A stretch of 64,000 nucleotides of DNA from assembly GCA_020845735.1 (NCBI GenBank), contig JADLFF010000017.1, positions 8,704 through 72,703 on the forward strand, given 5' to 3'. Position 1 is the stretch's first letter, and every line of letters starts with the position of its first letter. Under the pieces are notes generated by a model, which was not told where the DNA came from, did no database searches, and saw only the letters and a program-made list of their open reading frames with translations. Positions 3,275 through 23,815 of this stretch are shown piece by piece. Position numbers and translations under genes: made by a program. This DNA is from Dehalococcoidia bacterium (GTDB taxonomy: Bacteria; Chloroflexota; Dehalococcoidia; UBA2979).

Positions 3275-3808
3275 TTAGTCCGCGTCGGCCGGGGCAGGCT
3301 CGGCGGCCGCCTCGGCAGACGACTCGGTCGCGGGCTCCGGCGCGGCCTCTGCCGTCGCCTCGGGAGCTGCCTCCGCCACGGACTCCGAGGCCGCCGCTGC
3401 TACGGGAGCCTCGACTGGCGCCACGGGAGCCCTGAACTCGGCGCGCTCCGTCGGCACGGGGCGCGGCGCGAAGCGAGGGCGCTCGCTCGTGAACTCGGGC
3501 GGAGCCTCATCGCTGCCCATGATGCCACGAATCACCATGTGCCGGATCACGTCCTCCTGGATGTGCAGCGCTCGGTCGAGCGCGACCGCCGCTGCGGCGG
3601 GCATCCGGAGCCGGGCGATCACGTACGTGCCATCGAGGTTGTGCGCGATGGGGTACGCCATGCGTCGGCGCCCCCAGGTGCGGGAGCTCAGCACCTCGCC
3701 GCCACCGGACGTCACCTGCCCGGCGAGCCACGTGCCAAGCTGCTCGACCTCGGCGGGGCCGCGTCGAGGCGTGACGATGTAAATCAACTCGTATTCGTTC
3801 ATGTCCAT
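3275..3808 (-). CDS. rpsF: 30S ribosomal protein S6 with about 80-aa Ala/Pro/Glu-rich acidic C-terminal extension
   Basis: MDMNEYELIYIVTP...RLRMP core typical of S6. Start set at M104 of the ORF (ATG 3808, GAGGG-like RBS). The long N-terminal ORF extension is Arg/Pro-rich read-through. Confidence 0.85.
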   Translation of the reverse strand: MDMNEYELIYIVTPRRGPAEVEQLGTWLAGQVTSGGGEVLSSRTWGRRRMAYPIAHNLDGTYVIARLRMPAAAAVALDRALHIQEDVIRHMVIRGIMGSDEAPPEFTSERPRFAPRPVPTERAEFRAPVAPVEAPVAAAASESVAEAAPEATAEAAPEPATESSAEAAAEPAPADAD

Positions 3809-3879
3809 CCCTCGGGTATGGCCGCGCGCGCATCGAGGGCTCGAAGGCGCGACCGGGTTGGGATGCGCAGGAAGCTCCC

Positions 3880-3916
3880 GCGCCCAGAGAGTGTACGGGC
3901 CGCCCGTTGGACGGTA
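3880..3916 (-). promoter_or_regulatory. candidate sigma-70-like promoter for rpsF-ssb-rpsR (TTTACC-17nt-TACACT on minus strand)
   Basis: Read by eye in the 244-bp intergenic region upstream of rpsF. Nothing beyond the -35/-10 motif match supports it. Confidence 0.25.
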
Positions 3917-4003
3917 AACCGACAAGACCAGCGAGCCCGGCGGCGTAATCACCGGCCCGAGCACCCCCCGGCCACCCGAGGCACTCGCGGGAGCGGGGGA
4001 CGA

Positions 4004-4030
4004 CGAAGGCCCGGTCGCCCCGGGCCTTCG
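4004..4030 (-). terminator. 11-bp perfect hairpin (cgaaggcccgg-ggcga-ccgggccttcg) downstream of the acyl-CoA dehydrogenase gene
   Basis: Perfect inverted repeat immediately after the acd stop on the minus strand. The trailing sequence is only weakly U-rich, so this may be a terminator or a stability element. Confidence 0.3.
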
Positions 4031-4052
4031 CACTACCGTCGCTACGCCTCGA

Positions 4053-5270
4053 CTAGCCGCGGGGCAACCCGAGGCCGCGCGTGGCGATGATGTTGCGCTG
4101 GATCTCGGAGGTGCCACCGGCGATCGTCGACGGCACCGAGAGCACGTAGGAGCGCGTGAACTGCGCGTTCATCGGAGCGCGCTCGTCGTGCTCGTCCCAG
4201 ATGTTCGCGTGCAGGCCGAAGACCTTCGTGCCGGTCCGTGCGAGGCGCTGGCCCAGCTCGGACATGAACATCTTGGCGGTCGACGCCTCGTAGTTGGGGA
4301 TGATGCCCCGGTTCTGCATCGAGATGATGCGGAACGAGTACTGGAAGCCGACCTCGGTCTCGATGAAGTCCTCGGCGACCTCGTGTCGCAGCGAGTCGGA
4401 ATCATCGAGGCGCGACTTGGCCTTGCCGGCATCGGTCTTGGCGAACTCGATCAGCTTGTTGATCGTGCGTCGCGAGGCGATCGCGCCCGAGATGTTGGAG
4501 CGCTCGAAGTCGAGGAGCGACGCGCCGACGTACCAACCGCGGTTCTCCTCGCCGACCAGGTTCTTGGCCGGAACGTGGACATCCTCGAAGAACGTCTCGT
4601 TGAAGCCATGCTCCCAGCCCATGTTGATCAGCGGGCGAACCGTGATCCCGGGGCTCGTGCGGTCCATCATCAGGAAGGAGATGCCGCGGTGCTTGGGCGC
4701 CTCCGGGTCCGTGCGCATCATGCCGAACAGCCAGTCGGCGGTGTGCGCGCCCGAGGTCCAGATCTTCTGGCCGTTAATGATGTACTCGTCGCCGTCCTTG
4801 ACGGCGCGCGTCTGGAGCGATGCGAGGTCGGACCCCGAGCCCGGCTCGGAGTAGCCCTGGCACCACGCCACCTCGCCGGAGAGGATCTTCGGCAGGTGCT
4901 CGGCCTTCTGCTCCTCGGTGCCGTGGACGATCAGGGTGGGGCCGAACATCTGGACGCCCATGCCACCGACGCCCGGCGCTCCCGCGGTTGCCATCTCCTG
5001 GTTGAAGATGAACTGCTCCATCGGGCTCATGCCCGCGCCGCCGTACTCCTTCGGCCAGTGCGGCGCGACCCAGCCCTTCGAGGCCAGCGCGTTCGCCCAG
5101 TCGATGGCCGCCTGTCGCGCGACCGGGTCGTCCGACTTCCGGTCGACCTGCCAGCCGCCACGTTCGCCCTGCTCGCCCGACTTGCGGTAGCGCTCAGGGA
5201 GTCTGTCCTGGATCAGCGTCCGCACTTCGTTGCGGAACGCGGCCTGCTCAGGAGTGTCGTTCCAGTCCAT
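4053..5270 (-). CDS. acyl-CoA dehydrogenase
   Basis: Full-length ACAD family similarity (N-terminal, middle and C-terminal domains; YSEPGSGSDLASL, GQKIWTSGAH motifs). ATG start at 5270. Confidence 0.85.
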   Translation of the reverse strand: MDWNDTPEQAAFRNEVRTLIQDRLPERYRKSGEQGERGGWQVDRKSDDPVARQAAIDWANALASKGWVAPHWPKEYGGAGMSPMEQFIFNQEMATAGAPGVGGMGVQMFGPTLIVHGTEEQKAEHLPKILSGEVAWCQGYSEPGSGSDLASLQTRAVKDGDEYIINGQKIWTSGAHTADWLFGMMRTDPEAPKHRGISFLMMDRTSPGITVRPLINMGWEHGFNETFFEDVHVPAKNLVGEENRGWYVGASLLDFERSNISGAIASRRTINKLIEFAKTDAGKAKSRLDDSDSLRHEVAEDFIETEVGFQYSFRIISMQNRGIIPNYEASTAKMFMSELGQRLARTGTKVFGLHANIWDEHDERAPMNAQFTRSYVLSVPSTIAGGTSEIQRNIIATRGLGLPRG

Positions 5271-5542
5271 TCAGTCGCCTTCTCTTTCCGGCCCGCCGTC
5301 GGCTCTCAGGCGCAGCACGCAGCGCGGGCCTCGAGATAGGCCCGCGAACGCCGTCATCTTGAATGAACGCATGGAGGCCGTCAAGCTGCGGGGCCAGAAT
5401 CGAGGAGGTTCGCCGCGATCTCGCCCCTCGCGGCCCCCGAGCCGCCGCAGCGACGCCATGTGAAGCACCGATTCGCCCGCGACTCGGACGGCAAGGACTC
5501 GGACCGAGCGATCCTCACAGCGGTTGTAATGGGCCCCGGCGC

Positions 5543-6826
5543 CTACCTCCGAGGGGGCACGCCCGGCGCCGGGTGCGCCTCGCACAGCTCGAGCACCTCG
5601 TTGCGCAGGCGCCGCTCGACGTCGGCGTCACCCCGGGCGTCGAACGCCTCGAGGATGATCTCGCCGACGCGACGAATCTCGGCAGCCCCGAATCCCCGCG
5701 AGGTCAGCGCCGGCGTGCCGATCCGGATCCCCGAGGCCAGCGCCGGCGGCAACTCGTCGAAGGGGATCGCGTTCTTGTTCACCACCACGCCGCACCGCTC
5801 GAGGAGGTCGGCCGCCTCCTGCCCGTTGAGGTCCTTCGGACGCACGTCGACGAGTACGAGGTGGGTCTCGGTGCCGCCGCCCACCAGGCGCAGACCGCCG
5901 TCCGCGAGCGTCTCGGCGAGCGTCTTCGCGTTCTCCACGGTCTGCTGGGCGTACGCCTTGAACTGCGGCGTCGCCGCCTCCTTGAGCATCACCGCCTTGC
6001 CGGCAATCACGTGCATCAGCGGCCCACCCTGCGTGCCCGGGAAGACGCCGCGGTCCACCCGCCGCGCGAAGTTGGCGTCGCAGAGGACCATGCCACCTCG
6101 AGGTCCACGCAGGGTCTTGTGCGTCGAGGTGGTCACGACCTGGGCCAGCCCGGCCGGCGAGGGGTGCGCGCCCCCGGCCACCAGGCCCGAGATGTGCGCC
6201 ATGTCGGCCATGAGGGTTGCGCCCACCTCGTCCGCGATCTGGCGGGCGCGAGCGAAGTCGAACTGACGTGGGTAGGCCGTGGCGCCCACGACGATGATCT
6301 TCGGGCGGTGCTCTTTTGCCGTCGCGAGCATCGCGTCGTAGTTCAGCAGTTCCGTCTCGCGGTCGACGCCGTACGGCACGATGTCGTAGAGCTTGCCCGT
6401 CGCGTTGACCGACGCGCCGTGCGTGAGGTGTCCGCCCGCGGGCAGCTCCATCCCCATGAGGCGGTCACCGGGGCTGAGCACGCCCGTGTACACGGCCATG
6501 TTCGCCTGCGCCCCCGAGTGCGGCTGCACGTTCGCGTGCGCCATCCCGAAGAGCGCCGTGGCCCGGTCGATCGCCAGCTGCTCGACGATGTCCACGAACT
6601 CGTTGCCGTGGTAGTACCGCTTCCCCGGGTACCCCTCGGCGTACTTGTTCGTAAGCACCGTGCCGACGGCCTCGATCACCGCGGCGCTGGCGTAGTTCTC
6701 GCTCGCGATCATCTCGAGGACGGTGCGCTGGCGCTCCTCCTCGTTTGTAATCGCCGCAGCCACCTCGGGATCGACGGCTTCCAGCGCGGGCCGGAGGGAC
6801 TGGACATCGGTCGGCGCGTTCGCCAT
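5543..6826 (-). CDS. glyA: serine hydroxymethyltransferase
   Basis: Canonical SHMT sequence ([30 protein letters not shown]..., [14 protein letters not shown]-lysine region). ATG at 6826 with an AGAGAGG RBS preferred over the GTG at 6844. Confidence 0.9.
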
Positions 6827-6908
6827 CGACGGACCTCTCTGCACGGGGCACCAGGAACGAGGAAGCTCGATCTTAAGTCGTGGATTCGAGATGCACGAGT
6901 GCGCGCGG

Positions 6909-8048
6909 CTAGACGGGGACGCTCGCAGCCCGGCGAACCCCGTCGCGCTGCTCCCACGCCCAGTCGTTGAGCAGCATCAGCCCGCCTGCCACGAGGGAGT
7001 GCCCGCCGAGCACCACCGGCACCGGCGCGGCGTTCGCAGCCTCGACGAGCGAGCGCAGACCCGCGTCCGTGATTTCCGAGGCGAGCCCGAGGTCCGCCGC
7101 GAACCGGTCCGCCCTCGATGGGTGCAGTCCCAGCTGGACCAGCGCGGGCCGGATATCGAGGAACGCGGCCCCACCGAGGTCGGGCAGCAGCTCCGAGAAG
7201 AAGCGCTGCGACCCCGCCTCGGCGAGCAGCATCCCCAGCAGCGAGCGCGCCGAGCCGTCCGTCTCGCGGCCGGCCGCGGACATGCCGCGCTCCTCGGCAA
7301 GCAGGCGCACACGGCAGGCCGTCTCCCGCTCGAGGTACTGCCAGGCCCGCGATGACACGCGCCCCGCCACCAGCACCTCGGCGTGGCGGTCAGTGAACAG
7401 GCGTGCCGCCTCGCCAAGCCGAGGGAGCACGGGGACATCGGCCAGCGCGCGCCGCAATCGAGGCCCGCCGCGACCGCTGAGCGCCAGCGCTGCGAGGTCG
7501 ACGGGCGTATCGAGGTTGGTCTGCGTGGCGAGCGAACGCGGGAGCTCCACGAACTCGATCCCGCACTCGTCACGCAGGCGCCGAGGAACGCCGTTGTCCT
7601 TCGTTGGACGCGGCGTCAGCTGCCCGAGCGCGGCCGCCGGCCGCACCCCGAACAGGTCCGCCGAGTAGAAGTTGTTGCTGACCCCTCGGGGGTCGGGAGT
7701 GTCGAGCGCCGCGGCGAGCGCCTCGAAGTCCGCCCCCGCGAGGAGCGGCGCGCTCCCCCCGCCGAGGTAGACAACAGCCGCAGCATCGCGCTCGCGAATC
7801 GCGTCCGCGAGGCGCGTGCCGAACTCGAAGGGTGCGCCCGGCGCGTCGACGTCCACCTCGATGGACGGGGGCACCTCGAGCACCGGCGGCCGGTCCGCGA
7901 TGAGGAGACCTCGCTCGTACGCACCGGTCGCGAGGGCGACCTCGAGGGCATCGAGCGCGCTCGCCTCGAGGGCGCTCCGCAGCTGCTCCTCGAGGCGCCC
8001 GCCGCTCATGCCGCCCAGCATGACGATGAGCCAGGGACGAGCGTTCAT
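6909..8048 (-). CDS. hypothetical protein, two internally similar alpha/beta domains (possibly nucleotidyltransferase-like)
   Basis: Long ORF with protein-like composition. Start placed at [13 protein letters not shown] (ATG near 8048), 30 nt downstream of the pfkB stop. No confident family assignment. Confidence 0.45.
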
Positions 8049-8076
8049 CGGACCTCGATCCCGGGCGTCCGGAACG

Positions 8077-9036
8077 CTACGCGCGGACAGCGACGTGACG
8101 CGCCACGGGCTCGACCACGCCGTTGGGGAGGAGCTCGTTGACATCTCCCCGATGACAGAGCGCCGTCCCGGGGGCCATGCACACCGCAGCACCCACCGCC
8201 GAGGCGAGGCGAAGCGACTCCGCCCAGCCGCGCTCCTGCCGAAGTCCCAGCAGCAGCCCCGCGAGGAAGCCATCGCCTGCCCCGACCGCGGAGTCCACGG
8301 TGACGAGGGGTGGCATCGCGCGAAACTCGCCCTCTGGGGTCACCGCGACGGCGCCCTCGCCGCCACGCGTGATCACGGCGCTGTCGATGCCCATGCGCCG
8401 CACCGCGCGCGCGCCATCGAGGGCCTTCTCCTCGGAGCTGCAGTCGCGATGGAGCAGGCGACCGAGCTCGTGGTCGTTCATCTTGAGGATCGTGGGCTGC
8501 GCGCCAAGGGCGAACACCTGCTCTACGACCGGGCCATCCGCATCGAGGACGGACATGGCACCGAGCGCCTGCACGCGACCAAGCGCTTCCGCGTGGAAGG
8601 TGACCTCCATCCCCGGAGGCATCGAGCCGGCGAACACGAGGCAGGTGTCGCGCCGGATCCGTCGATGCAGGTGCCGGCTCAGGCGGTCGATCGCCTCGGG
8701 CGGCACGACGGGCCCGGGTGCCGCGAGCACCGTGCTCTGGTGCACGGAGCGGTCGAGGATATTGATGTTGGTACGCGTCTCGCCGGGGTAGGGGATGAAG
8801 TCGCAGCCGATGCCCTCGTCGGTGAGCTGCTCCTCGATCATCCCGCCGAAGCGTCCCGGAGCGAACCCCATCGCGAGGGGTTCGTAGCCCAGCTCCTTGA
8901 GCACGCGGGCCACGTTGACGCCCTTGCCGCCGATGTCGCGGCGGATGGCGACCACCCGATTCGTATCGGCGGTCACCAGCCGATCGACCTCGACCGTCTC
9001 ATCAACAGCGGGGTTGAGCGTGATAGTGATGATCAT
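8077..9036 (-). CDS. PfkB-family sugar kinase (1-phosphofructokinase / tagatose-6-phosphate kinase-like)
   Basis: MIITITLNPAVD...GGKGVNVA N-terminus and C-terminal DSAVGAGDGFLAGLL motif typical of FruK/LacC ribokinase-superfamily kinases. Confidence 0.75.
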   Translation of the reverse strand: MIITITLNPAVDETVEVDRLVTADTNRVVAIRRDIGGKGVNVARVLKELGYEPLAMGFAPGRFGGMIEEQLTDEGIGCDFIPYPGETRTNINILDRSVHQSTVLAAPGPVVPPEAIDRLSRHLHRRIRRDTCLVFAGSMPPGMEVTFHAEALGRVQALGAMSVLDADGPVVEQVFALGAQPTILKMNDHELGRLLHRDCSSEEKALDGARAVRRMGIDSAVITRGGEGAVAVTPEGEFRAMPPLVTVDSAVGAGDGFLAGLLLGLRQERGWAESLRLASAVGAAVCMAPGTALCHRGDVNELLPNGVVEPVARHVAVRA

Positions 9037-9148: not shown

Positions 9149-9871
9149 TCAGTCCTCGATAGCGAGGGCGAGGGCAACGACTCGCCGCACACCGGCAGCG
9201 CGGAGCGCGGACGACACCGCCTCGAGCGTCGCACCGGTCGTGGTCACGTCATCCACGAGGAGCGCGCTGGCCGGCACGGCCGCCCCACCCCCCGCCCCAC
9301 CCTCGAGCGGCACGAACGCCCCCTCGACGTTCCGAGCCCGCTCCATCCTGCCGAGGGACGCCTGCACGCGCGTCCGTCGCGCCCGGCGTACGAGGTCGCC
9401 GCGAACGGGAACACCGAGGGCTCGGCCCACGTGAGAGGCGATCAGCGCACCCTGGTTGAACCCGCGCTCGCGCTCCCGCGAGGCGTGCAGCGGGACGGGC
9501 ACCACGCACTCCACCCCCCATTCGAGGGGTACCGCCTCGGCGGCCGCGAGCGAGAGCGGCTCGAAGAGGGCGCGGATACCGCGAAACTTCGCCTCGAGGA
9601 TCGCGCGACGGGCAATGCCCTCGAATCGGAACGCGGCGCGGCGCGCCACCAGCGCCGAGGGCGGAGCGACCTCGCAACGAGCGCAGGCGGACCGACCGGT
9701 GTCGACGGGCGCCCAGCAGCGGGAGCAGCGCGCGCCATCGGCGGCGGCCAGCCGACCGATGCACGCCGTGTGCAGCGCGTCGCCGAACGCCCCGCAGGCG
9801 ACGCAGCGCTGGGGGAGGAGCAGTTCCGCGAGCTCACGGACGAGCGTCGTCCACACGGGAGATGGGGGCAC
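9149..9871 (-). CDS. ComF-family protein (phosphoribosyltransferase domain with N-terminal Cys4 zinc finger)
   Basis: CVACGAFGD...CSRCWAP...CARC zinc ribbon plus C-terminal PRTase motif LLVDDVTTTGATL. Confidence 0.65.
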   Translation of the reverse strand: MPPSPVWTTLVRELAELLLPQRCVACGAFGDALHTACIGRLAAADGARCSRCWAPVDTGRSACARCEVAPPSALVARRAAFRFEGIARRAILEAKFRGIRALFEPLSLAAAEAVPLEWGVECVVPVPLHASRERERGFNQGALIASHVGRALGVPVRGDLVRRARRTRVQASLGRMERARNVEGAFVPLEGGAGGGAAVPASALLVDDVTTTGATLEAVSSALRAAGVRRVVALALAIED

Positions 9872-9915
9872 TGGCGTCCTCAGCGACCTCCGAGCAGCGG
9901 GAATATACTCGTCAG

Positions 9916-10605
9916 ATGCGAGTCCAGGTACGGCTGTTCGCCGGTCTCAGGCAGCTCGTCGGCGGGGACATCGAAGAGGACTTCGATGGCGATCGCGTCG
10001 CGGTCTCGGACCTCACGGAACGCCTCGCCGCGCGATACCCCGAGCTCCGACCGCACTTCGAGGTGATCGCCGTCGCGGTCAACGAGGAGTACTGCACCGA
10101 CCGGAACCAGCTCATCCGCGAGGGAGACGAGGTCGCCCTCATCCAGCCGATCTCCGGCGGTGCGGACACGGCAACCCCTCGCTTCCTGGTGACGCGCGAC
10201 AGACTCGAGGCGGACACCCTCCGCGCGGCCGTACTCACCCCCTCGAGCGGCGCGCTGGTGGTGTTCGAAGGCGTCGTCCGGGACCGTCACGAGGGCCATG
10301 TCGTGCTGCGCCTCGAATACGAGGCCTACGAGCCGATGGCCGAACGGACGCTCCGCGAGGTCGGGGAGGCCGTGCGGCGCGACTTCGCCGTGCACGACGT
10401 TGCCATTCACCATCGCGTCGGGATGCTGGAGGTCGGCGAGACCTCGCTCCTGGTCGCCGTCAGCGCCGAGCACCGGCGGGACGCCTTCGAGGCCGCACTC
10501 GCCGCGGTGGACCGCGTCAAGGAATCGGTGCCGGTCTGGAAGCGCGAGTTCAGCCCCGACGGCGTCACGTGGCAAGAAGGCATCCCGCCTCGACCCGTCG
10601 CCTAG
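9916..10605 (+). CDS. moaE: fused molybdopterin synthase: MoaD-like sulfur-carrier domain (ends ...ISGG) joined to MoaE catalytic subunit
   Basis: N-terminal roughly 85 aa, MRVQVRLFAGLRQ...LIQPISGG, is MoaD/ThiS beta-grasp. The remainder matches the MoaE family. ATG at 9916 chosen over the ORF-track start at 9862. Confidence 0.7.
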   Translation: MRVQVRLFAGLRQLVGGDIEEDFDGDRVAVSDLTERLAARYPELRPHFEVIAVAVNEEYCTDRNQLIREGDEVALIQPISGGADTATPRFLVTRDRLEADTLRAAVLTPSSGALVVFEGVVRDRHEGHVVLRLEYEAYEPMAERTLREVGEAVRRDFAVHDVAIHHRVGMLEVGETSLLVAVSAEHRRDAFEAALAAVDRVKESVPVWKREFSPDGVTWQEGIPPRPVA

Positions 10606-10618
10606 ACCGCCCGGCCTC

Positions 10619-12016
10619 CTACACCCCGCCGAGGCGGTAGTCGGGCGCCGTCACCTCATACACCACGCTCGCATCGAGGTCGGACAGCCGCGAGGCGATC
10701 CGCGGCTCCATCGCCCCCAGCTCCACGTTCGTCGTGACGATCGTGTGCGCGTGCGTGACGTGGCGGTGGTTGATCAGCTGGTAGAGCTTCTCCTGCGCCC
10801 ACGGGCTCGATTGCTGCGCGCCCAGGTCATCGAGGACGAGCAGCGGCACATCGAGCAGGGGCTTGAACATGCGCTCGAATCGGGACGGCGCCCCCGGTCC
10901 GAACGTCGAGCGCAGCTCGTCGAGGAGGTCCGGGACATTGGCAAAGCAGACGCGCTCGCCTCGATTGAGGCGGTATCCGGCGATGGCCGACGCGAGGTGC
11001 GTCTTTCCTGAGCCATTGCCCCCGATCAGGACCAGCCACCCGTGTGGTGACTCGGCCCACTGCCTCGCGAGGCGGTACGCCCCCTCGAGATTGTCGCGGA
11101 CCTTGCCGCGGAGACCGCGTCCTCCGGGGCTGAAGTTCTCGAAGGTGAAGTCGAGCATGCGTGCGCGCGTCATCGCGCCGACGTGCGAGTAGAGCGGCGC
11201 CACTTCCTCCTGCAGCACGAGCACCTGCGACATCGCAGGGTCCGACAGCCGAGCTGCCAGGCGGGCGTCGAGGTCCCCGAGCGCCTGCTCGCACGTGAAC
11301 ACCGTGGGGAGCGCGGCGTGGAATCGATGTGAGACGAGCTGCAGGAACTTCTCCCGCGCCCACGCCGTCTCGGCGAATGCGTCCAGGTCATCGAGGATCA
11401 CCAGCGGCGCGTTGCGCAGCTGCTCGAGGAGGCGCTCGTAGGGCAGCTCGGCGTCCTCACCGTACGAGGCGCGCAGTTGATCGAGCAGATCCGCGACGCC
11501 GAAGAAGAGCGCGGGCGTGCCGCGCTCGATCGCGCGAGAGGCGATCGCCGCGGCCAGGTGCGTCTTGCCGCAGCCCGGCACCCCCGAGATCACGAGCCAG
11601 CCCTCCGCATGCTCGGCGTATTGCTCCGCGACCGCGACCGCCTGCTCGTATCGCTGCTGCACCTCGGGATCCTCCGAGCGGCCGCGCCGTAGCAGCGTGT
11701 CGAAGGTCATCCGGCTCAGCGCACCCAGGCGCGAGTACCGCAGGAGGCGATCGTGGCGCACGTGCGAGTCCTCGTGGCGCACGCACTCACACGGCACCGC
11801 CTGGCCGAAGGCAGGGTCGTCGGGATCAGCGGTCACGCGGACAAAGCGGGCGCCGAGGCAGAGTGCGCACTCTGCTGGCCGTGGACGCTGCGACCGTCGA
11901 TCGGCCGCCTCAGGGCCAGTCGCGTCGGACCACGCGAGCGTATCGATCACCCGCCGCTCGAGGGCCTGCGACGTGCGCCGGCGTTGGGCCTCCAGCAGAT
12001 CCTGCAGCGCGTCCAT
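10619..12016 (-). CDS. DnaC/DnaI/IstB-type AAA+ helicase-loader homologue with two tandem complete ATPase domains and an N-terminal Cys-rich zinc ribbon
   Basis: Two Walker A motifs (GVPGCGKTHLAAAIA; GGNGSGKTHLASAIA) and two Walker B motifs (VILDDLD; LVLDDLG), each preceded by the TFD/TFENF segment typical of DnaC/IstB. CALCLG...CEC cluster upstream. Start ambiguous: ATG 12016 (GGAG 8 nt upstream) or 12028. Either overlaps the DnaD-like gene by about 100 bp. Confidence 0.6.
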   Translation of the reverse strand: MDALQDLLEAQRRRTSQALERRVIDTLAWSDATGPEAADRRSQRPRPAECALCLGARFVRVTADPDDPAFGQAVPCECVRHEDSHVRHDRLLRYSRLGALSRMTFDTLLRRGRSEDPEVQQRYEQAVAVAEQYAEHAEGWLVISGVPGCGKTHLAAAIASRAIERGTPALFFGVADLLDQLRASYGEDAELPYERLLEQLRNAPLVILDDLDAFAETAWAREKFLQLVSHRFHAALPTVFTCEQALGDLDARLAARLSDPAMSQVLVLQEEVAPLYSHVGAMTRARMLDFTFENFSPGGRGLRGKVRDNLEGAYRLARQWAESPHGWLVLIGGNGSGKTHLASAIAGYRLNRGERVCFANVPDLLDELRSTFGPGAPSRFERMFKPLLDVPLLVLDDLGAQQSSPWAQEKLYQLINHRHVTHAHTIVTTNVELGAMEPRIASRLSDLDASVVYEVTAPDYRLGGV

Positions 12017-12671
12017 GCTCGACTCCATCCTCGGGGCCCGGCTCCGGGCCACGAGCACGCCCCTCTTGCTCCCACCCGCGGAGGACTGCTGCCGCGTAGT
12101 TCCAGTTGCGCGCGCCACGTCTCGAGGCCAGGCGCAGCGCCTCCACGACCCACGCCTGGGGATAGCGCTCGCAGGCTTCGCTGAGCGACTCCGCCACGGC
12201 CGGAGTCAGCGCTCCCATCTCCGACTCGTACACCCTCGCCGGGTCCGCCGGCGCCTCCGCGGGATGTCCGGCGGCCAGAGGGACCGGCGGCGCCAGGGCT
12301 CCCGACTGGACCGCGGCCAGCGATCGGCGACCGACGTCGCTGTTCAGGAAGTACAGCGTGTCGCCATCCTCGAGGGCACAGGCGAGCAGCACCCCGCGAG
12401 CACGCGCCGCCGCCAGTCCGAACGTGAGCGCCTGGCGCCCCCCCAGCGTCTCGAGGGCCTCGACAAGCGGCGACTCGCTGGCCAACTCGCTCTCCCGGAT
12501 CGCCCGCAGCCGCCCGCGCCGACGTTGAATCGCGTACAGCGCGTAGAGCGTGACGCGCAGCTCCACCGGATCGGCAATCGCGGGAAGAAGCTCGGTGAAG
12601 AGCTGCACGGGCAAGGTGGTAGCCGGCGCTCCGGCGATGAACCCCGTGAACGACGACGTGCGATGAGTCAC
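11910..12671 (-). CDS. DnaD-domain replication initiation / helicase-loading protein
   Basis: C-terminal DnaD/DnaB_2 signature ...RNWNYAAAVLRGWEQEG. N-terminal winged-helix-like region. Located between dnaB and the DnaC-like gene. Confidence 0.55.
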   Translation of the reverse strand: MTHRTSSFTGFIAGAPATTLPVQLFTELLPAIADPVELRVTLYALYAIQRRRGRLRAIRESELASESPLVEALETLGGRQALTFGLAAARARGVLLACALEDGDTLYFLNSDVGRRSLAAVQSGALAPPVPLAAGHPAEAPADPARVYESEMGALTPAVAESLSEACERYPQAWVVEALRLASRRGARNWNYAAAVLRGWEQEGRARGPEPGPEDGVEHGRAAGSAGGPTPAHVAGPRAAGDRYARVVRRDWP

Positions 12672-12714
12672 TGCTCACCCCTCCCGCCAGCTCGCTGAGG
12701 ACGCGTGCCTTCCA

Positions 12715-14166
12715 TCAGAAGTCCGGCGGCGGCTGGCGCAGCACCAGGTCCATGAACGAGGCCGTTCGATCCCTGAAGCGCACGGTGACGGTATCCGTCG
12801 GGCCGTTTCGATGCTTGGCGATGATGATCTGCGCAAGCCCCGTCGGATGCTGGCCGCCGGGCTGGTCAGGATGCTGCTCCTGCCACTCCTCGGGCGTGCG
12901 ATACACGTCCTCGCGGTAGATGAACATGACGACATCGGCGTCCTGCTCGATGGAGCCCGACTCGCGGAGGTCGGACAGCATCGGGATGTGGGGCTGCCTC
13001 GTCTCCACCGCTCGAGACAGCTGCGCAGCCGCGATCACCGGCACTTTCAACTCGCGAGCAAGCTCCTTGAGGGAACGGGTGATGCCGGAGATCTCGTTCA
13101 CGCGCGTGTCGAGGCGTCCCGCCCCGTGGAGGAGCTGGAGGTAGTCGACGATCACGAGGTCGAGCCCCTGGTCGGCCTGCAGTCGACGGAGCTTCGCGCG
13201 GATCTCGGGGACCGACAGGTACGCCGAGTCATCGATGAAGATCTTCGCCTCGCCCAGCACGCCGATGGCGTGCATGATCCGCGCCTCCTCGTCCTCGCGA
13301 TGCATACCCAGGCGCAGCCGCGTCGAGTCGACATCGGCCTCATGGGACAGGAGTCGCATCGCAAGTTGCTCCGCCGACATCTCGAGTGCGAAGAAGGCAA
13401 CCGTCCCCTTTGAGCCCACCGCCGCGTTCCTCGCGAAGTTGAGGAGCAGCGACGACTTGCCGACGCCCGTGCGTGCGGCCAGCACCACGAGGTCGCCACG
13501 CTTGAACCCACCCAGGACCGTGTCGAGGTCCATGAACCCCGTGCGGACGGCGACCGTGTGCATCGCGTCCTGCTCGTCGCCGGGATTCTCGAGGAAGTCC
13601 TCCAGCAGACCCCGCAGGCGCTGGAAGTCGCCGGCCGACTCGGCGCTGCGCAGATCGAGCAGCAGCGTCTCCGCCGCCGAGAGCACCGCACTCGCGTCCG
13701 GACCGCCCTGGTACGCGACGCGCGCGATCTCGCCTGCGGCCTCGATCAGCCGCCGGTAGAGGGCGTCGCGAGCGACGATGCGCGCGTGCGCCTCGACGCC
13801 GACCGCGGTGAAGTACTTGCCGGCGAGGTCAACGAGGTACGCCTCGCCACCGCTGGCATCGAGGCGCCCCGCCCGCTCGAGGTCGTGCGCAACGGTCGCG
13901 ACCGTGATCGGCTCGCCGCGCTCGGCGACGGCCTGGGCCGCCTCGTAGCACCAGCGGTTCTGCTCGCGGAAGAAGTCCTCGGGCTGCAGGATGCTGAGGA
14001 CACGGGCGTACGCCTCCTCGTCGAGGAGCATCGCCGCCAGGACCGCTTCCTCCGCACCGACGTCGTGAGGTGGGAGACCACCCTGCGGGCCGCGCGTGGC
14101 CTCGCGATCCTGGTCACCCCGACGAGAACCGGACCGGAACGGTGCCGGTCTCCCCTCGATGACCAT
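12715..14166 (-). CDS. dnaB: replicative DNA helicase DnaB
   Basis: Full-length match to DnaB, no intein: N-terminal domain, Walker A GVGKSS, and the RecA-like C-terminal domain motifs. Confidence 0.9.
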   Translation of the reverse strand: MVIEGRPAPFRSGSRRGDQDREATRGPQGGLPPHDVGAEEAVLAAMLLDEEAYARVLSILQPEDFFREQNRWCYEAAQAVAERGEPITVATVAHDLERAGRLDASGGEAYLVDLAGKYFTAVGVEAHARIVARDALYRRLIEAAGEIARVAYQGGPDASAVLSAAETLLLDLRSAESAGDFQRLRGLLEDFLENPGDEQDAMHTVAVRTGFMDLDTVLGGFKRGDLVVLAARTGVGKSSLLLNFARNAAVGSKGTVAFFALEMSAEQLAMRLLSHEADVDSTRLRLGMHREDEEARIMHAIGVLGEAKIFIDDSAYLSVPEIRAKLRRLQADQGLDLVIVDYLQLLHGAGRLDTRVNEISGITRSLKELARELKVPVIAAAQLSRAVETRQPHIPMLSDLRESGSIEQDADVVMFIYREDVYRTPEEWQEQHPDQPGGQHPTGLAQIIIAKHRNGPTDTVTVRFRDRTASFMDLVLRQPPPDF

Positions 14167-14177
14167 GGCGGAGCGGC

Positions 14178-14813
14178 TTAGGGAGTCGAGGCGTCCCCCG
14201 CGTCGTCGAGGTTGTCCTCGGCGGCTGCGGCGGACCCATCGCTGTGCGAGGATTCGCCCGACTCCGACACACCCGCGGTGCCGTAAGCGTCAGCGCTGGT
14301 TGCCTCGTCCTCGTCAGCCGGCGGAGCCAGCATCGCCTGGACGGCAGCCTCGACGCCTTCCGACGCCTCAGCATCGACAACCACCACCGTCGCGTTGCCT
14401 GTCACATTGCGCGACAGGCGAACGGGGACGGCGTATACGCCAACGGTCCGAATCACCTCGGGCAGCAGGATGCGACGCCTGTCCAGTTGATCGCCAAGAA
14501 TCTCCCCAGCCTTCTCGGCGATATCCGCGTTGGTCACGGAACCGTACAAGCGTCCCTGCTCGCCCACCCTGACGGCCATCACGAGCGGGCGGCTCTCAAG
14601 CGTGCCGACCAGCCCTCGAGCCTGCTCGTCCTGGGACTGTTGCCGCTGTTCCTCAATCGCAGCGAGCTGCGCGGCTCGCTCCAGGACCTGCGGCGTTGCC
14701 GGTGCGGCGAGGCCGCGCGGCAAGAGGAAGTTCCGAGCGTATCCATTGGCGACGTTGCGCACCTCGCCCATGGACCCGGAACCCTCAACTGTCTCCAGGA
14801 AGACAACCTTCAC
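14178..14813 (-). CDS. rplI: 50S ribosomal protein L9 with about 60-aa acidic C-terminal tail
   Basis: [36 protein letters not shown] is canonical L9. GTG start with a GAGAGGG RBS. Asp/Glu/Ser/Ala-rich C-terminal extension. Confidence 0.8.
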
Positions 14814-21793: not shown

Positions 21794-21949
21794 CTAGTCC
21801 GCGGACGGCAGGACCTTCGGCTGGAGCTCCTCCATCCCGCGGCCGTCAACGTTGAGGTTGACGTCGGCGGGCTTCTCGCCGGGCTTGATGCAGAGCACCT
21901 CTATGTTGGTCAGCTCATCGCGATAGCGCTTGCCGAGTGCAACAGCCAT
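21794..21949 (-). CDS. small ORF, 51 aa (MAVALGKRYRDELTNIEVLCIKPGEKPADVNLNVDGRGMEELQPKVLPSAD), unknown function
   Basis: Below the ORF-track size cutoff; found by reading the minus strand. ATG preceded by an AGGGGG RBS. Coordinates approximate, within 2 nt. Confidence 0.3.
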   Translation of the reverse strand: MAVALGKRYRDELTNIEVLCIKPGEKPADVNLNVDGRGMEELQPKVLPSAD

Positions 21950-21960
21950 GTCGCTACCCC

Positions 21961-22077
21961 CTAGGCCTGTTCGAGCGCCGTGGTGCCGCAGCGCAGCTCC
22001 CCGTCGCCCCCGCGTGTCACGATGAACTCCGCGCCACAGTCAGGGCAGCGGTACCGCTTTCCTGTCTCCGTCGGCAT
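21961..22077 (-). CDS. small ORF, 38 aa zinc-ribbon-like (MPTETGKRYRCPDCGAEFIVTRGGDGELRCGTTALEQA)
   Basis: Found by manual translation. GGAGG RBS 9 nt upstream. A TAGAAT -10-like box lies about 35 nt upstream. Shares the GKRYR motif with the next small ORF. Confidence 0.3.
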   Translation of the reverse strand: MPTETGKRYRCPDCGAEFIVTRGGDGELRCGTTALEQA

Positions 22078-22161
22078 CTCTCACCCCCTCCGCACAAGCA
22101 GAAACTACGTCGATTCTATCCGGATGCGAACGCGGCCGGTTCCCGGTGTCGGTCTGACGGC

Positions 22162-23118
22162 TTACGGATTCACCGTCTTGATGTAGGTCACCAGGTTCTG
22201 GACGTCTTCGTCGCTGAGGCTCGCCGTGGTCTTCCACGCGGGCATCGCCGTCCCCGGTCGACCGTTCGCGATGGTGTTCGCGTAGAACTCGTCAGCCTGC
22301 GTCAGCCGCGCCGGGGTGAGGGCGGGGCCCACACCACCCTGGCGGTTCTGGCCGTGGCACACGGCGCAGTTCGCCCTGAAGAAGTCCGCCACCGCGATGC
22401 CCTTGACCGCCGGGCCGCTCACCGGCCCCTTGCCCTTCGACGTCGCTACGCCCTCAACCGGAGCGGAGCCCTTCGGGACGAACGGGTCGCGGACACGGAA
22501 TTCCGCAGCGGTCGTGCCCGTGTACTGCCCGCAGTTCGCCTCGGTGACGGTCAGCGTGGGGACATCGGCCAGCTTCACGAGCGTGGCTTCGGTGTCCTTC
22601 TGGAACGCCTCGGCGTGGTCGTGGATGTCCGGGTACACCTCTTCGAGGTGCTCGTCGCTGATCTCGTTGTAGATCTCCCACGCGCCGGGTGTCGTCAGGA
22701 GCGTCACCAGCTGGTCGATCTTCGTGTCGGACAGCGGGCCGCCGTAGCGCTCCGCCCACGTCGGCATGGGCGAGCCGGTGCGACCGCACGCGATCGTGGT
22801 GCGGAGGAACGTGCGAATCTTGGCCGCGTCGCCGGCCGGCGTCGCCTCGAAGTCCTGGTTGTGCTCGTCGATGATCAGGAACGAGTCGTTGTGCAGCACG
22901 GGCGCGAACGCGCCCTCCTCGGAGCCCTTGCCGGTCATCCCGTGGCAGCTGCGGCAGTTGTTCACGAACATCTTCGAGCCGCGCACGATGTCGCGCTCGA
23001 GGATCTCCTCGCGCGCCGCCTCCATCCGGTTGCCCTCGTTGATGGCGTATGCGGCGAGCACCAGGACGAGCAGGCCCAGCAGCCCAATCATGGCGTTGAC
23101 CTGCTTGCTCGTGTTCAT
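22162..23118 (-). CDS. membrane-anchored diheme c-type cytochrome (two CxxCH: CRSCH, CAVCH), cytochrome c subunit of a bc/b6c complex
   Basis: N-terminal TM anchor, two haem-binding motifs with downstream Met ligands; last gene of the Rieske/cytochrome b operon. Confidence 0.8.
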   Translation of the reverse strand: MNTSKQVNAMIGLLGLLVLVLAAYAINEGNRMEAAREEILERDIVRGSKMFVNNCRSCHGMTGKGSEEGAFAPVLHNDSFLIIDEHNQDFEATPAGDAAKIRTFLRTTIACGRTGSPMPTWAERYGGPLSDTKIDQLVTLLTTPGAWEIYNEISDEHLEEVYPDIHDHAEAFQKDTEATLVKLADVPTLTVTEANCGQYTGTTAAEFRVRDPFVPKGSAPVEGVATSKGKGPVSGPAVKGIAVADFFRANCAVCHGQNRQGGVGPALTPARLTQADEFYANTIANGRPGTAMPAWKTTASLSDEDVQNLVTYIKTVNP

Positions 23119-23170
23119 CAGCGCGCCTTATCCCTCGAGAGAGCGTTCACCGAATCCGACCCGACGCCGC

Positions 23171-23815
23171 CTAGACCTTCGTGGCGCGCTCGGGGTTCTC
23201 TGGGCCACCCGGTAGGCGCTGTCCGGTCTGCACGACGATGTTGCCCGCGCCGTCGATCTCCACCGCCATGGTGTCCATGGAGCGAGGGGCGGGGCCGAAG
23301 ACTCGAACGCCTGCCTTGGTGTACGTCGAGCCGTGACACGGGCAACGGAACCAGCCGTTGTCGTCGTTGTAGCTGAACCCGGGACGCCAGGGCACAGAAC
23401 ACCCGAGGTGCGGACACTTCCGCCAGAGGGCGAGGATGCCGTCACCGCCGCCGGAGCCACCGGGCCGGGTCTCCGCAGGGTCCAGGTTCACGAGGAAAAA
23501 CTGGCCGATCGGGAATTCCTTCGGAGCCCCACCCTTCGGCAGTTCGGTCACCTTGCCGGCAGGCACCGGGCCACCGAATCCCGTGACCCCTCGCGGGTAG
23601 AGGAAGTCGACCAGAACTCCGACCGAGCCCGCGAGCATCGTGCCGAGACCGGCCCAGAAGTTGAGGAGGATGAAGCGGCGCCGAGTGAGATCGGGCAGCC
23701 GTCGCGCGGCCGCCGCCGAGGGCAGCGTCGCGCCACCCGCGAGCTGCGTTCGCCGGGTGGCGATCGCCTGCTGCCACGAGCCTCCGACATCGCCCCCCTG
23801 GGGCTGATTGGTCAT
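23171..23815 (-). CDS. Rieske [2Fe-2S] iron-sulfur protein with Tat signal
   Basis: RRRFIL twin-arginine motif plus TM helix. CPHLGC...CPCHGS Rieske boxes. Confidence 0.85.
   Translation of the reverse strand: MTNQPQGGDVGGSWQQAIATRRTQLAGGATLPSAAAARRLPDLTRRRFILLNFWAGLGTMLAGSVGVLVDFLYPRGVTGFGGPVPAGKVTELPKGGAPKEFPIGQFFLVNLDPAETRPGGSGGGDGILALWRKCPHLGCSVPWRPGFSYNDDNGWFRCPCHGSTYTKAGVRVFGPAPRSMDTMAVEIDGAGNIVVQTGQRLPGGPENPERATKV

Follow-up and report, generated by a model that had tools for sequence, protein, structure and literature searches.

A predicted helicase loader with two AAA+ modules in one chain, encoded behind dnaB and dnaD in Dehalococcoidia-type Chloroflexota

We analysed a 64,000-nucleotide (nt) stretch of the genome of a Dehalococcoidia bacterium (assembly GCA_020845735.1, contig JADLFF010000017.1, positions 8,704 to 72,703), hereafter the window. 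Four consecutive genes lie on its minus strand at ~10.6–14.8 kb: rplI, dnaB, a dnaD-like gene and a gene for a AAA+ ATPase related to DnaC and DnaI, which we call the loader and which carries two ATPase modules in one polypeptide. We consider it probable that this rplI-dnaB-dnaD-loader block is the chromosomal helicase-loading module of Dehalococcoidia-type Chloroflexota, with a covalently doubled loader of which, we infer, three chains serve each DnaB hexamer. The tandem loader is apparently a real, widespread and undescribed architectural variant of a known machine, not a new kind of system.

Results

Two DnaC-type modules in one loader chain

The two halves of the 465-amino-acid (aa) loader are 41% identical to one another over 174 aa (E = 1e-34). 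Each half carries the Walker A (GxxGxGK[ST], here GxxGxGKT) and Walker B (hhhhD[DE], here LDD) motifs of the AAA+ initiator/helicase-loader clade, which includes DnaA, DnaC, DnaI and IstB. The best Pfam family, IstB_IS21, matched in two stretches (120.2 bits), as did Bac_DnaA and AAA. By sequence, the modules aligned with E. coli DnaC (6qel_G) at E = 1e-12 to 1e-13, and the top match in the PDB was the IstB of IS5376. By fold, the loader model matched single-module structures: A. aeolicus DnaC (3ecc, target TM-score 0.73), G. kaustophilus DnaI (2w58, 0.73), E. coli DnaC in the DnaBC complex (6qem_G), IstB and DnaA. The loader belongs to the DnaC/DnaI/IstB AAA+ superfamily, with scores under the cut-offs of the equivalog models for DnaC (PRK07952, 117.7 bits against 357), DnaI (PRK08939, 98.3 against 228) and IstB (NF038214, 139.8 against 200). 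The best PHROG family was phrog_50, 'DnaC-like helicase loader' (260 bits, again in two stretches). The N-terminal 138 aa matched no Pfam family, including DnaI_N, at E values up to 10.

A preliminary description of this locus, made from the sequence alone, had reported a DnaD-domain gene and a loader with two DnaC/IstB-type ATPase modules directly after dnaB, and this order and both modules are present. It had also called the arrangement Firmicute-style. That is apt for DnaD; it does not hold for the loader, which falls under the DnaI and DnaC cut-offs and lacks DnaI_N. The loader had been given as an open reading frame (ORF) of 465–499 aa, listed at 10619–12118 (−). The 465-aa length was borne out and the longer start was not, since homologues begin at the ATG at 12016.

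From its N-terminus, the chain consists of a helix, a region with four cysteines, AAA+ module 1, a linker of ~20–25 residues and AAA+ module 2. An AlphaFold2 model (mean predicted local distance difference test score, pLDDT, 83.5; predicted template modelling score, pTM, 0.57) has a helix at residues 2–21, a disordered linker, a low-confidence cysteine region, short helices and two Rossmann-type AAA+ cores (~117–280 and ~304–455). Across 121 aligned loader sequences, C76 and C78 are invariant (121/121) and C50 and C53 are kept in at least 90%. The cysteine-cluster region matches no family and has a pLDDT of 48–63; we regard it as a putative zinc ribbon of the helicase-binding region. A zinc ribbon at this place had been proposed before: the pattern CxxC-x22-CxC is indeed conserved, and zinc binding is a prediction from it.

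The operon is conserved across species

A scan of one genome per species gave at least 600 pattern matches and, among these, at least 539 confirmed relatives of the loader; we examined the best 80 loci. These range from 39 to 72% in GC content, encode loaders 39–67% identical to that of the window, and nearly all come from metagenome-assembled genomes (MAGs) titled Chloroflexota or Dehalococcoidia. Among the loci with enough flanking sequence, dnaB lay upstream of the loader in 65 of 65, dnaD in 75 of 76 and rplI in 61 of 63. The preliminary description had considered the proximity to dnaB unusual, which is true with respect to model organisms; in this lineage it is the rule. One locus, in a MAG titled 'Proteobacteria bacterium' that is probably mislabelled (L062:4602-7308), has a tandem loader ~100 nt after dnaB and no detectable dnaD.

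In a search of 5.8 billion proteins, we found thousands of full-length relatives of 404–485 aa, the named ones all from Dehalococcoidia or Chloroflexota MAGs. A loader sequence of the Dehalococcoidales type used as query gave the same picture; this homologue search and cluster look-ups returned MAG and metagenome entries and no cultured representative. A HMMER search over 1.84 billion cluster representatives yielded 509 clusters at E ≤ 1e-30, of which the top 150 are mostly two-module proteins of 420–490 aa with the same cysteine cluster.

The preliminary description had named a collapsed or artificial duplication and an integrated element as possible explanations. In the 121 aligned loaders, the identity between the two modules of one protein ranges from 0.32 to 0.46, with a median of 0.40. 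This divergence, together with the synteny over 80 species-level loci of widely differing GC content, excludes both, and the housekeeping neighbours and flat composition of the locus argue further against an integrated element.

Active-site residues of the two modules

We mapped loader residues onto E. coli DnaC through HMMER alignments and took the roles of the DnaC residues from Puri et al. 2021 (PMC8213410). The Walker A lysine K112 corresponds to K151 in module 1 and K338 in module 2, and the Walker B pair D169-E170 to D209-D210 and D396-D397. The residues that contact single-stranded DNA (ssDNA) also have counterparts: K143 and F146 are R and Y in module 1 and R and F in module 2, and S177 and Y179 are T217 and W219 in module 1 and S and W406 in module 2. 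Walker A and B residues of both modules are kept in 120–121 of the 121 homologues, as are two RxxxR pairs, R252/R256 in module 1 and R439/R443 in module 2. From the RxxxR spacing and an 'SRL' pattern, we assign these pairs as the probable Arg-coupler and Arg-finger (R216 and R220 of DnaC). A PDYR motif follows 18 residues past R443, with P, D and R invariant in a 34-sequence alignment and no counterpart in module 1; judged by its spacing, it would be positioned like the sensor-II residue R237 of DnaC. In the AlphaFold2 model, two helices lie between strands 2 and 3 of each module (H174-183 and H193-202; H361-370 and H380-389), consistent with the extra helical insertion known as the initiator-specific motif of the clade.

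The modules differ at sensor I. N203 of DnaC corresponds to N430 in module 2 and to E243 in module 1. In near relatives the module 1 position is V, D, E, A or S; in module 2 it is N in 100 of the 121 sequences and D in 19. In E. coli DnaC, N203A abolished ATPase activity and was the most harmful active-site mutation for loading (PMC8213410). Judged by these motifs, module 1 of this lineage should bind ATP and ssDNA and give an arginine to the neighbouring site, with no ATP hydrolysis of its own, and module 2 is complete and canonical. The preliminary description had allowed that the second half might be a degenerate pseudo-domain; by motif analysis it is the first half, lacking the sensor-I Asn, that is degenerate.

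Sensor I and module number vary among relatives

We tallied sensor-I states in 87 tandem loaders. The largest group, with Asn in module 1 and another residue in module 2 (34 of 87), is the reverse of the window's arrangement, in which Asn is confined to module 2 (15 of 87). Neither module has Asn or Asp in 27, and both have Asn in 3. The others have Asp in module 1 with Asn (3) or another residue (3) in module 2, or another residue in module 1 with Asp in module 2 (2). On this count, sensor-I asymmetry is common among tandems, and which module is degenerate depends on the lineage. Loaders of the Dehalococcoidales type (L014, L065) have no sensor-I Asn in either module (TTS or TTR) and keep Walker A, Walker B and RxxxR; they may not hydrolyse ATP in the canonical way.

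The number of modules also varies. Versions with one module (278–281 aa), found in Dehalococcoidia and Chloroflexota MAGs, share the N-terminus and cysteine cluster of the tandem. One of them (L081, 278 aa) lies within an rplI-dnaB-dnaD-loader block with an 83-nt overlap between dnaD and loader; a reversed tandem with a degenerate module 2 (L082) likewise lies within dnaB-dnaD-loader. The longest chain, of 827 aa (P0122, L163:5001-7484), has one N-terminal cysteine cluster followed by four modules with intact Walker A and B, 41–65% identical to one another, with TTN kept in three and not in the last. It is encoded in a dnaB-dnaD-loader arrangement on a 64-kb contig, where dnaB (L163:2433-4259, 608 aa) contains an intein-splicing domain. 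A three-module loader of 792 aa (P0121, L164:3004-5382) follows directly after rplI-dnaB with no dnaD between. Its modules 1 and 2 are 84% identical, its C-terminal segment is repeated and its scaffold is 5.7 kb long, so it could reflect a recent duplication or an assembly problem.

PRK08116 was the best NCBIfam model for both tandem and one-module relatives. The tandem reaches 205 bits against a cut-off of 189, and one-module relatives 128–143; the tandem passes only because the scores of its two modules sum. The cysteine-cluster region of a one-module protein (P0196) aligns with the N-terminal parts of the PRK08116 and PRK06835 profiles (positions 9–235 and 100–303), and the layout of a cysteine cluster plus one AAA+ module is therefore probably older than the duplication. 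A phylogeny of the ATPase halves, suggested in the preliminary description, was built as a neighbour-joining tree of 185 module sequences. Modules and one-module relatives are 35–50% identical to one another, the internal branches are very short, and the tree does not separate one duplication from several. The three- and four-module chains and a tandem whose halves are 85% similar (P0137) hint at recurrent duplication.

The DnaD-like protein

The DnaD-like protein, 100% identical to an NCBI entry (P0304) named 'DnaD domain protein [Dehalococcoidia bacterium]', scored above the cut-offs of PF07261 (33.7 bits against 22) and TIGR01446 (33.4 against 24.95), in agreement with the DnaD domain described earlier. 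Its best PHROG family was phrog_186, 'DnaD-like helicase loader'. The signature YxxxVxxxW is located in 'RNWNYAAAVLRGW', and W190, Y192, L197, W200 and G204 are all invariant in 37 homologues. [quoted passage not shown]

The AlphaFold2 model of this protein (mean pLDDT 82.7) has a C-terminal domain of four helices at residues 144–203 and a tail with pLDDT <50 at residues 214–239 and a short helix at 245–250. The N-domain, predicted to be a winged helix, had no Pfam match. A Foldseek search of the PDB returned as best match a full-length DnaD chain from an integrative model (9a5c_B), a weak match (E = 1.6e-3, query TM-score 0.25); the others were generic winged-helix DNA-binding proteins. The tail ends in a motif of its own, D-P-Y-x-R-V-V-R-R in near relatives and Y-G-H-[LM]-V-[KR]-R in distant ones: proteins close to that of the window end in '...DPYARVVRRDWP' or similar, those of Dehalococcoidales-type genomes in '...DKYIKGKYGH(L/M)V(K/R)R'. 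In the operon we saw no second DDBH protein equivalent to the DnaB of B. subtilis.

A long overlap between dnaD and the loader gene

The loader start at 12016 is shared with near homologues, which begin there with 'MDALQ(D/E)LLEAQ'. The dnaD stop codon lies at 11910, so the two genes overlap by 107 nt, close to the ~100 bp of the preliminary description. In the NCBI record the same loader (MCC6236196.1, 'ATP-binding protein', 405 aa) is started 60 codons late, at V61, which cuts off the conserved N-terminal helix and the first CxxC and splits the cysteine cluster. Many database relatives of 404–408 aa begin with 'MRVT...' at the equivalent position, which suggests that the loader start is systematically mis-called.

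We recognised the loader start by the pattern M-x-x-[LIVMF]-x-x-[LIVMF]-[LIVMF] in 58 of the 80 loci and in the window, 59 places together. At 56 of the 59, reading on from the loader start, the dnaD stop is reached after 65–110 nt, most often after 83 nt (21 places) or 86 nt (19 places). In the loader frame, the first 13 codons have a mean pairwise amino-acid identity of 0.41, compared with 0.28 and 0.27 for the two alternative frames, and nucleotide conservation there is highest at codon position 2 of the loader frame, then 1, then 3. A weaker frame signal (0.26 against 0.20) was seen for dnaD at its end, since its tails vary in length. The conserved motif of each protein appears to face a poorly conserved, probably disordered stretch of the other; AlphaFold2 gives pLDDT <50 on both sides (loader residues 20–46, DnaD residues 214–239).

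Three database sequences join the two genes. P0413 (671 aa, JGI, from a 2.3-kb contig) is an in-frame DnaD-loader fusion whose junction falls exactly within the overlap region ('...EGRSNGTYKREILKR...'), and P0500 and P0059 appear to be frameshifted DnaD-loader gene calls. All three may stem from sequencing errors or from fusions that occur rarely in nature, or may hint at frameshifting.

Genomic setting

The coordinates of the block and its parts are collected in Table 1. Around it lie core genes: homoserine dehydrogenase, ribosomal protein S6, acyl-CoA dehydrogenase, a PfkB kinase, a ComF-like gene, a MoaD-MoaE fusion, PurL and a 7TM-HD protein. By Pfam, no transposase or integrase was found among the genes of the window, and GC content is flat at ~0.70 with no compositional break.

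Table 1 Features of the rplI-dnaB-dnaD-loader block, in positions of the window
Feature	Position	Strand	Basis
rplI, ribosomal protein L9, first gene of the conserved block	14178..14813	-	Pfam Ribosomal_L9_N and Ribosomal_L9_C
dnaB, replicative DNA helicase, 483 aa	12715..14166	-	TIGR00665, 470.9 bits against cut-off 385.25; Pfam DnaB and DnaB_C
DnaD-like adaptor gene, 253 aa	11910..12671	-	PF07261 and TIGR01446 over cut-offs
DnaD-like N-domain, aa 22-123, predicted winged helix (DDBH1-like)	12303..12608	-	AlphaFold2, pLDDT >90; helices, beta-hairpin, another helix
DnaD C-terminal domain DDBH2, aa 144-204, motif Y192-x3-V-x3-W200	12060..12242	-	PF07261 match at aa 147-204
DnaD C-terminal tail, aa 205-253 and stop codon, mostly disordered	11910..12059	-	Alignments, AlphaFold2
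Shine-Dalgarno-like GGAG, 6 nt 5' of the loader ATG, within the dnaD coding sequence	12023..12026	-	Sequence read
Overlap of dnaD tail and loader N-terminus, 107 nt, out of frame	11910..12016	-	Sequence read
Tandem-AAA+ helicase-loader gene, 465 aa, DnaC/DnaI/IstB superfamily	10619..12016	-	Pfam, NCBIfam and phrog_50 matches
Loader N-terminal helix, aa 1-21, pattern M-x-x-L-x-x-[LI]-L	11954..12016	-	AlphaFold2 helix at aa 2-21; pattern at loader start in 59 places
Cysteine cluster C50-x2-C53-x22-C76-x-C78 with GARFVRVT motif, putative zinc ribbon	11783..11869	-	Conservation
AAA+ module 1, ~aa 100-280: K151, D209-D210, E243, R252/R256	11177..11719	-	Alignment to E. coli DnaC 6qel_G
AAA+ module 2, ~aa 290-465: K338, D396-D397, N430, R439/R443, P458-D459-Y-R461	10622..11149	-	Alignment to 6qel_G and 3ec2

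The MoaD(ThiS)-MoaE fusion (247 aa, 9862-10605 (+)) lies directly downstream of the loader gene and is convergent with it. The start of the ComF-like gene (double zinc ribbon and phosphoribosyltransferase, 9149-9871 (−)), on the opposite strand, shares 10 nt with the start of the fusion. The nearest related loci (L001-L007) show synteny for both genes as well. The ribosomal protein S6 ORF (3275-4117 (−)) is 280 aa long with the S6 domain at residues 109–197; its listed start is probably too far upstream, and it may have a long C-terminal extension. Four other ORFs of 332–535 aa had no Pfam match at E ≤ 1e-5: 5363-6970 (+), 6909-8273 (−), 1324-2322 (−) and 21937-23376 (+). Some of these may be spurious shadow ORFs in DNA of 70% GC, others uncharacterised genes.

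Discussion

How the doubled loader might act

In the mechanism that we propose, the DnaD-like protein would serve, like DnaD in Bacillus, as the adaptor by which the complex of helicase and loader reaches unwound origin DNA. The loader would bind DnaB through its N-terminal helix and cysteine cluster, and its AAA+ modules would polymerise head-to-tail on the DnaB hexamer and on ssDNA into an open spiral like that of DnaC. Each chain would fill two adjacent positions of the spiral, so that three chains, with three helicase-binding regions, would serve one DnaB hexamer, and ATP sites would alternate between binding-only (module 1) and hydrolysing (module 2). The long overlap, together with the placement of a ribosome-binding site in dnaD, would link the production of the two proteins. 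That the loader binds DnaB and loads it on ssDNA is predicted from homology and from its linkage to dnaB in all 65 loci. The fully specified version, a trimer of covalent dimers with a six-position spiral, three helicase-binding regions and alternating ATP sites, in which the 80–86 nt overlap sets the adaptor:loader ratio by translational coupling, is possible, and we put it forward tentatively.

Three observations favour the occupation of two adjacent positions. Both modules keep the residues for ATP binding, ssDNA binding and the neighbouring site; degeneracy affects module 1 in some tandems and module 2 in others; and chains of one, two and four modules in the same operon suit an open filament better than stacked tiers. 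Such a filament has reportedly been seen in the AAA+ loader clade. The 827-aa chain, with four modules behind a single cysteine cluster, would fit an open filament and is hard to fit to stacked rings.

Several points pull the other way. The 3:6 stoichiometry is a prediction from sequence, and the pTM of the single-chain model leaves the relative placement of the modules uncertain. In the known natural two-module AAA+ proteins (p97, NSF, ClpB), the modules form two stacked rings, and four modules per chain do not divide evenly into six. The assignment of the arginine pairs is open to question in register: the ungapped HMMER alignment sets R256 opposite R216 of DnaC, an offset of four residues. 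A live and a dead module is a feature of some lineages, not a rule of the family, because 27 of the 87 tandems lack the Asn in both modules and 3 have it in both. Finally, our view of loader genes in the source genome is that of the 64-kb window.

Alternative explanations

The strongest alternative is a 6:6 assembly like those of DnaC and DnaI, in which six tandem chains would bind each DnaB hexamer, module 2 forming the usual spiral and module 1 a second tier with, for example, an extra contact to ssDNA, DnaD or DnaA. We think this unlikely, though it has real attractions: each chain has one helicase-binding N-terminus, and the known AAA+ loaders use one per DnaB subunit (E. coli DnaB6-DnaC6). 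Two-ring stacking is usual for natural tandem AAA+ proteins, and homotypic tiers would also explain why both arginine pairs are invariant. DnaC-type modules, however, lack the lid domain that links the tiers of type II AAA+ proteins, and the four-module variant would require four tiers. A degenerate module that is first or second depending on lineage suits equivalent positions better than distinct tiers. Whole-model Foldseek matches to p97/Cdc48-type proteins were poor (query TM-score 0.3–0.4, root-mean-square deviation 10–19 Å) and are uninformative.

It is improbable that the block serves replication restart or secondary loading, or is a domesticated prophage remnant, with another protein as the main origin loader. 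DnaD-like and DnaC-like genes are typical of phage replication modules, the best PHROG families of both proteins are phage ones, and another loader could lie elsewhere in a genome that we view through one 64-kb window. Yet the place right after rplI-dnaB is fixed over lineages whose loaders are 39–67% identical to that of the window, and no integrase, transposase or compositional break accompanies it. The best 80 viral relatives are single-module and at most 43% identical, and a survey of Chloroflexi genomes has dna[CI] and no dciA (PMC5109545).

A role as an IstB-type transposition helper, or as another non-replicative AAA+ protein, is very improbable. It is suggested by the best Pfam family and the top PDB sequence match, IS5376 IstB, and opposed by the NF038214 score, well under its cut-off, by neighbours that comprise dnaD, dnaB and the moaD-moaE fusion with no IstA transposase nearby, and by the invariable linkage to dnaB and dnaD. 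We reject the notion that the doubled ATPase is a collapsed repeat or two genes fused in assembly or gene calling, hardly credible even though some database relatives look like artefacts (the frameshifted fusions P0500 and P0059; the three-module protein with 84%-identical modules on its 5.7-kb scaffold), since the window's halves are just 41% identical, no stop codon or frameshift separates the modules, and the two-module form is conserved across species, with lengths of 404–485 aa in thousands of independent NCBI, JGI, ENA and Logan sequences, some on megabase contigs.

Prior knowledge and significance

Brézellec et al. 2016 described a single event in which Chloroflexi domesticated a dna[CI] gene from phage (PMC5109545), and in the supplementary table of that paper the Chloroflexi genomes shown, including Dehalococcoides and Dehalogenimonas, have dna[CI] genes and no dciA. 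Its main text contains neither 'tandem' nor 'duplicat'. In the full-text literature searched, mostly without subscription journals, no paper turned up that deals with a tandem DnaC/DnaI/IstB-type loader or with Chloroflexota DnaD, which is suggestive and not proof; nor did we find a description of the dnaB-dnaD-loader operon or of the overlap between dnaD and loader, for neither of which Brézellec et al. 2016 was searched. Most of the literature matches for DnaD with Chloroflex that we checked were false, such as the tool DNADIFF.

The loader bears on a question posed for DnaC and DnaI: what number of loader subunits, and of active ATP sites, it takes to crack the DnaB ring open and release it. 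Linked-subunit and mixed-mutant experiments exist for other AAA+ machines. Here the modules are apparently hard-wired in pairs with one site per pair disabled in many lineages, a natural experiment of the same kind, and a shared operon context with one, two or four modules per chain provides a comparative series. If true, the trimer of dimers would give bacterial helicase loading a stoichiometry and a site asymmetry that are both new, and module concatenation would be an evolvable parameter of the loading machine. The long conserved overlap offers a clean case for the study of dual-coding constraint and translational coupling. More broadly, a large and mostly uncultured phylum has under-annotated replication machinery, as the loader is publicly named 'ATP-binding protein' and, in this genome, started 60 codons late.

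Comparison with known systems

The domesticated dna[CI] of Chloroflexi (PMC5109545) is probably the same gene family as the tandem loader. DnaD-like and DnaC-like genes also occur together in phage replication modules (PMC11087808). These differ from the present locus: the best 80 relatives in IMG/VR are all single-module, with spans of 400–790 nt and 25–43% identity, and the locus in the window is chromosomal and syntenic. The uncharacterised DnaC-like 'ATP-binding protein' families PRK08116 and PRK06835 are likewise single-module, unlike the tandem loader.

With B. subtilis DnaD (DDBH1-DDBH2), the DnaD-like protein shares a DDBH2 domain above Pfam and TIGRFAM cut-offs, the Y-x3-[IV]-x3-W motif, a predicted winged-helix N-domain and a mobile C-terminal tail. 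It differs in that its tail has its own conserved end motif, encoded in the overlap with the loader gene, and in sequence it is ~17% identical to the DnaD chain 9a5c_B in the fold match.

The closest parallels are DnaC of E. coli and Aquifex aeolicus and DnaI of Bacillus and Staphylococcus. They share with the loader the fold, the order of an N-terminal helicase-binding region followed by the ATPase, counterparts of the Walker, RxxxR and ssDNA-contact residues and, for module 2, sensor I; the N-terminal region of DnaI also bears a cysteine cluster. DnaC and DnaI have one ATPase module per chain, whereas the loader has two, one of them without sensor I in this lineage, and its gene, unlike theirs, lies immediately after dnaB and dnaD.

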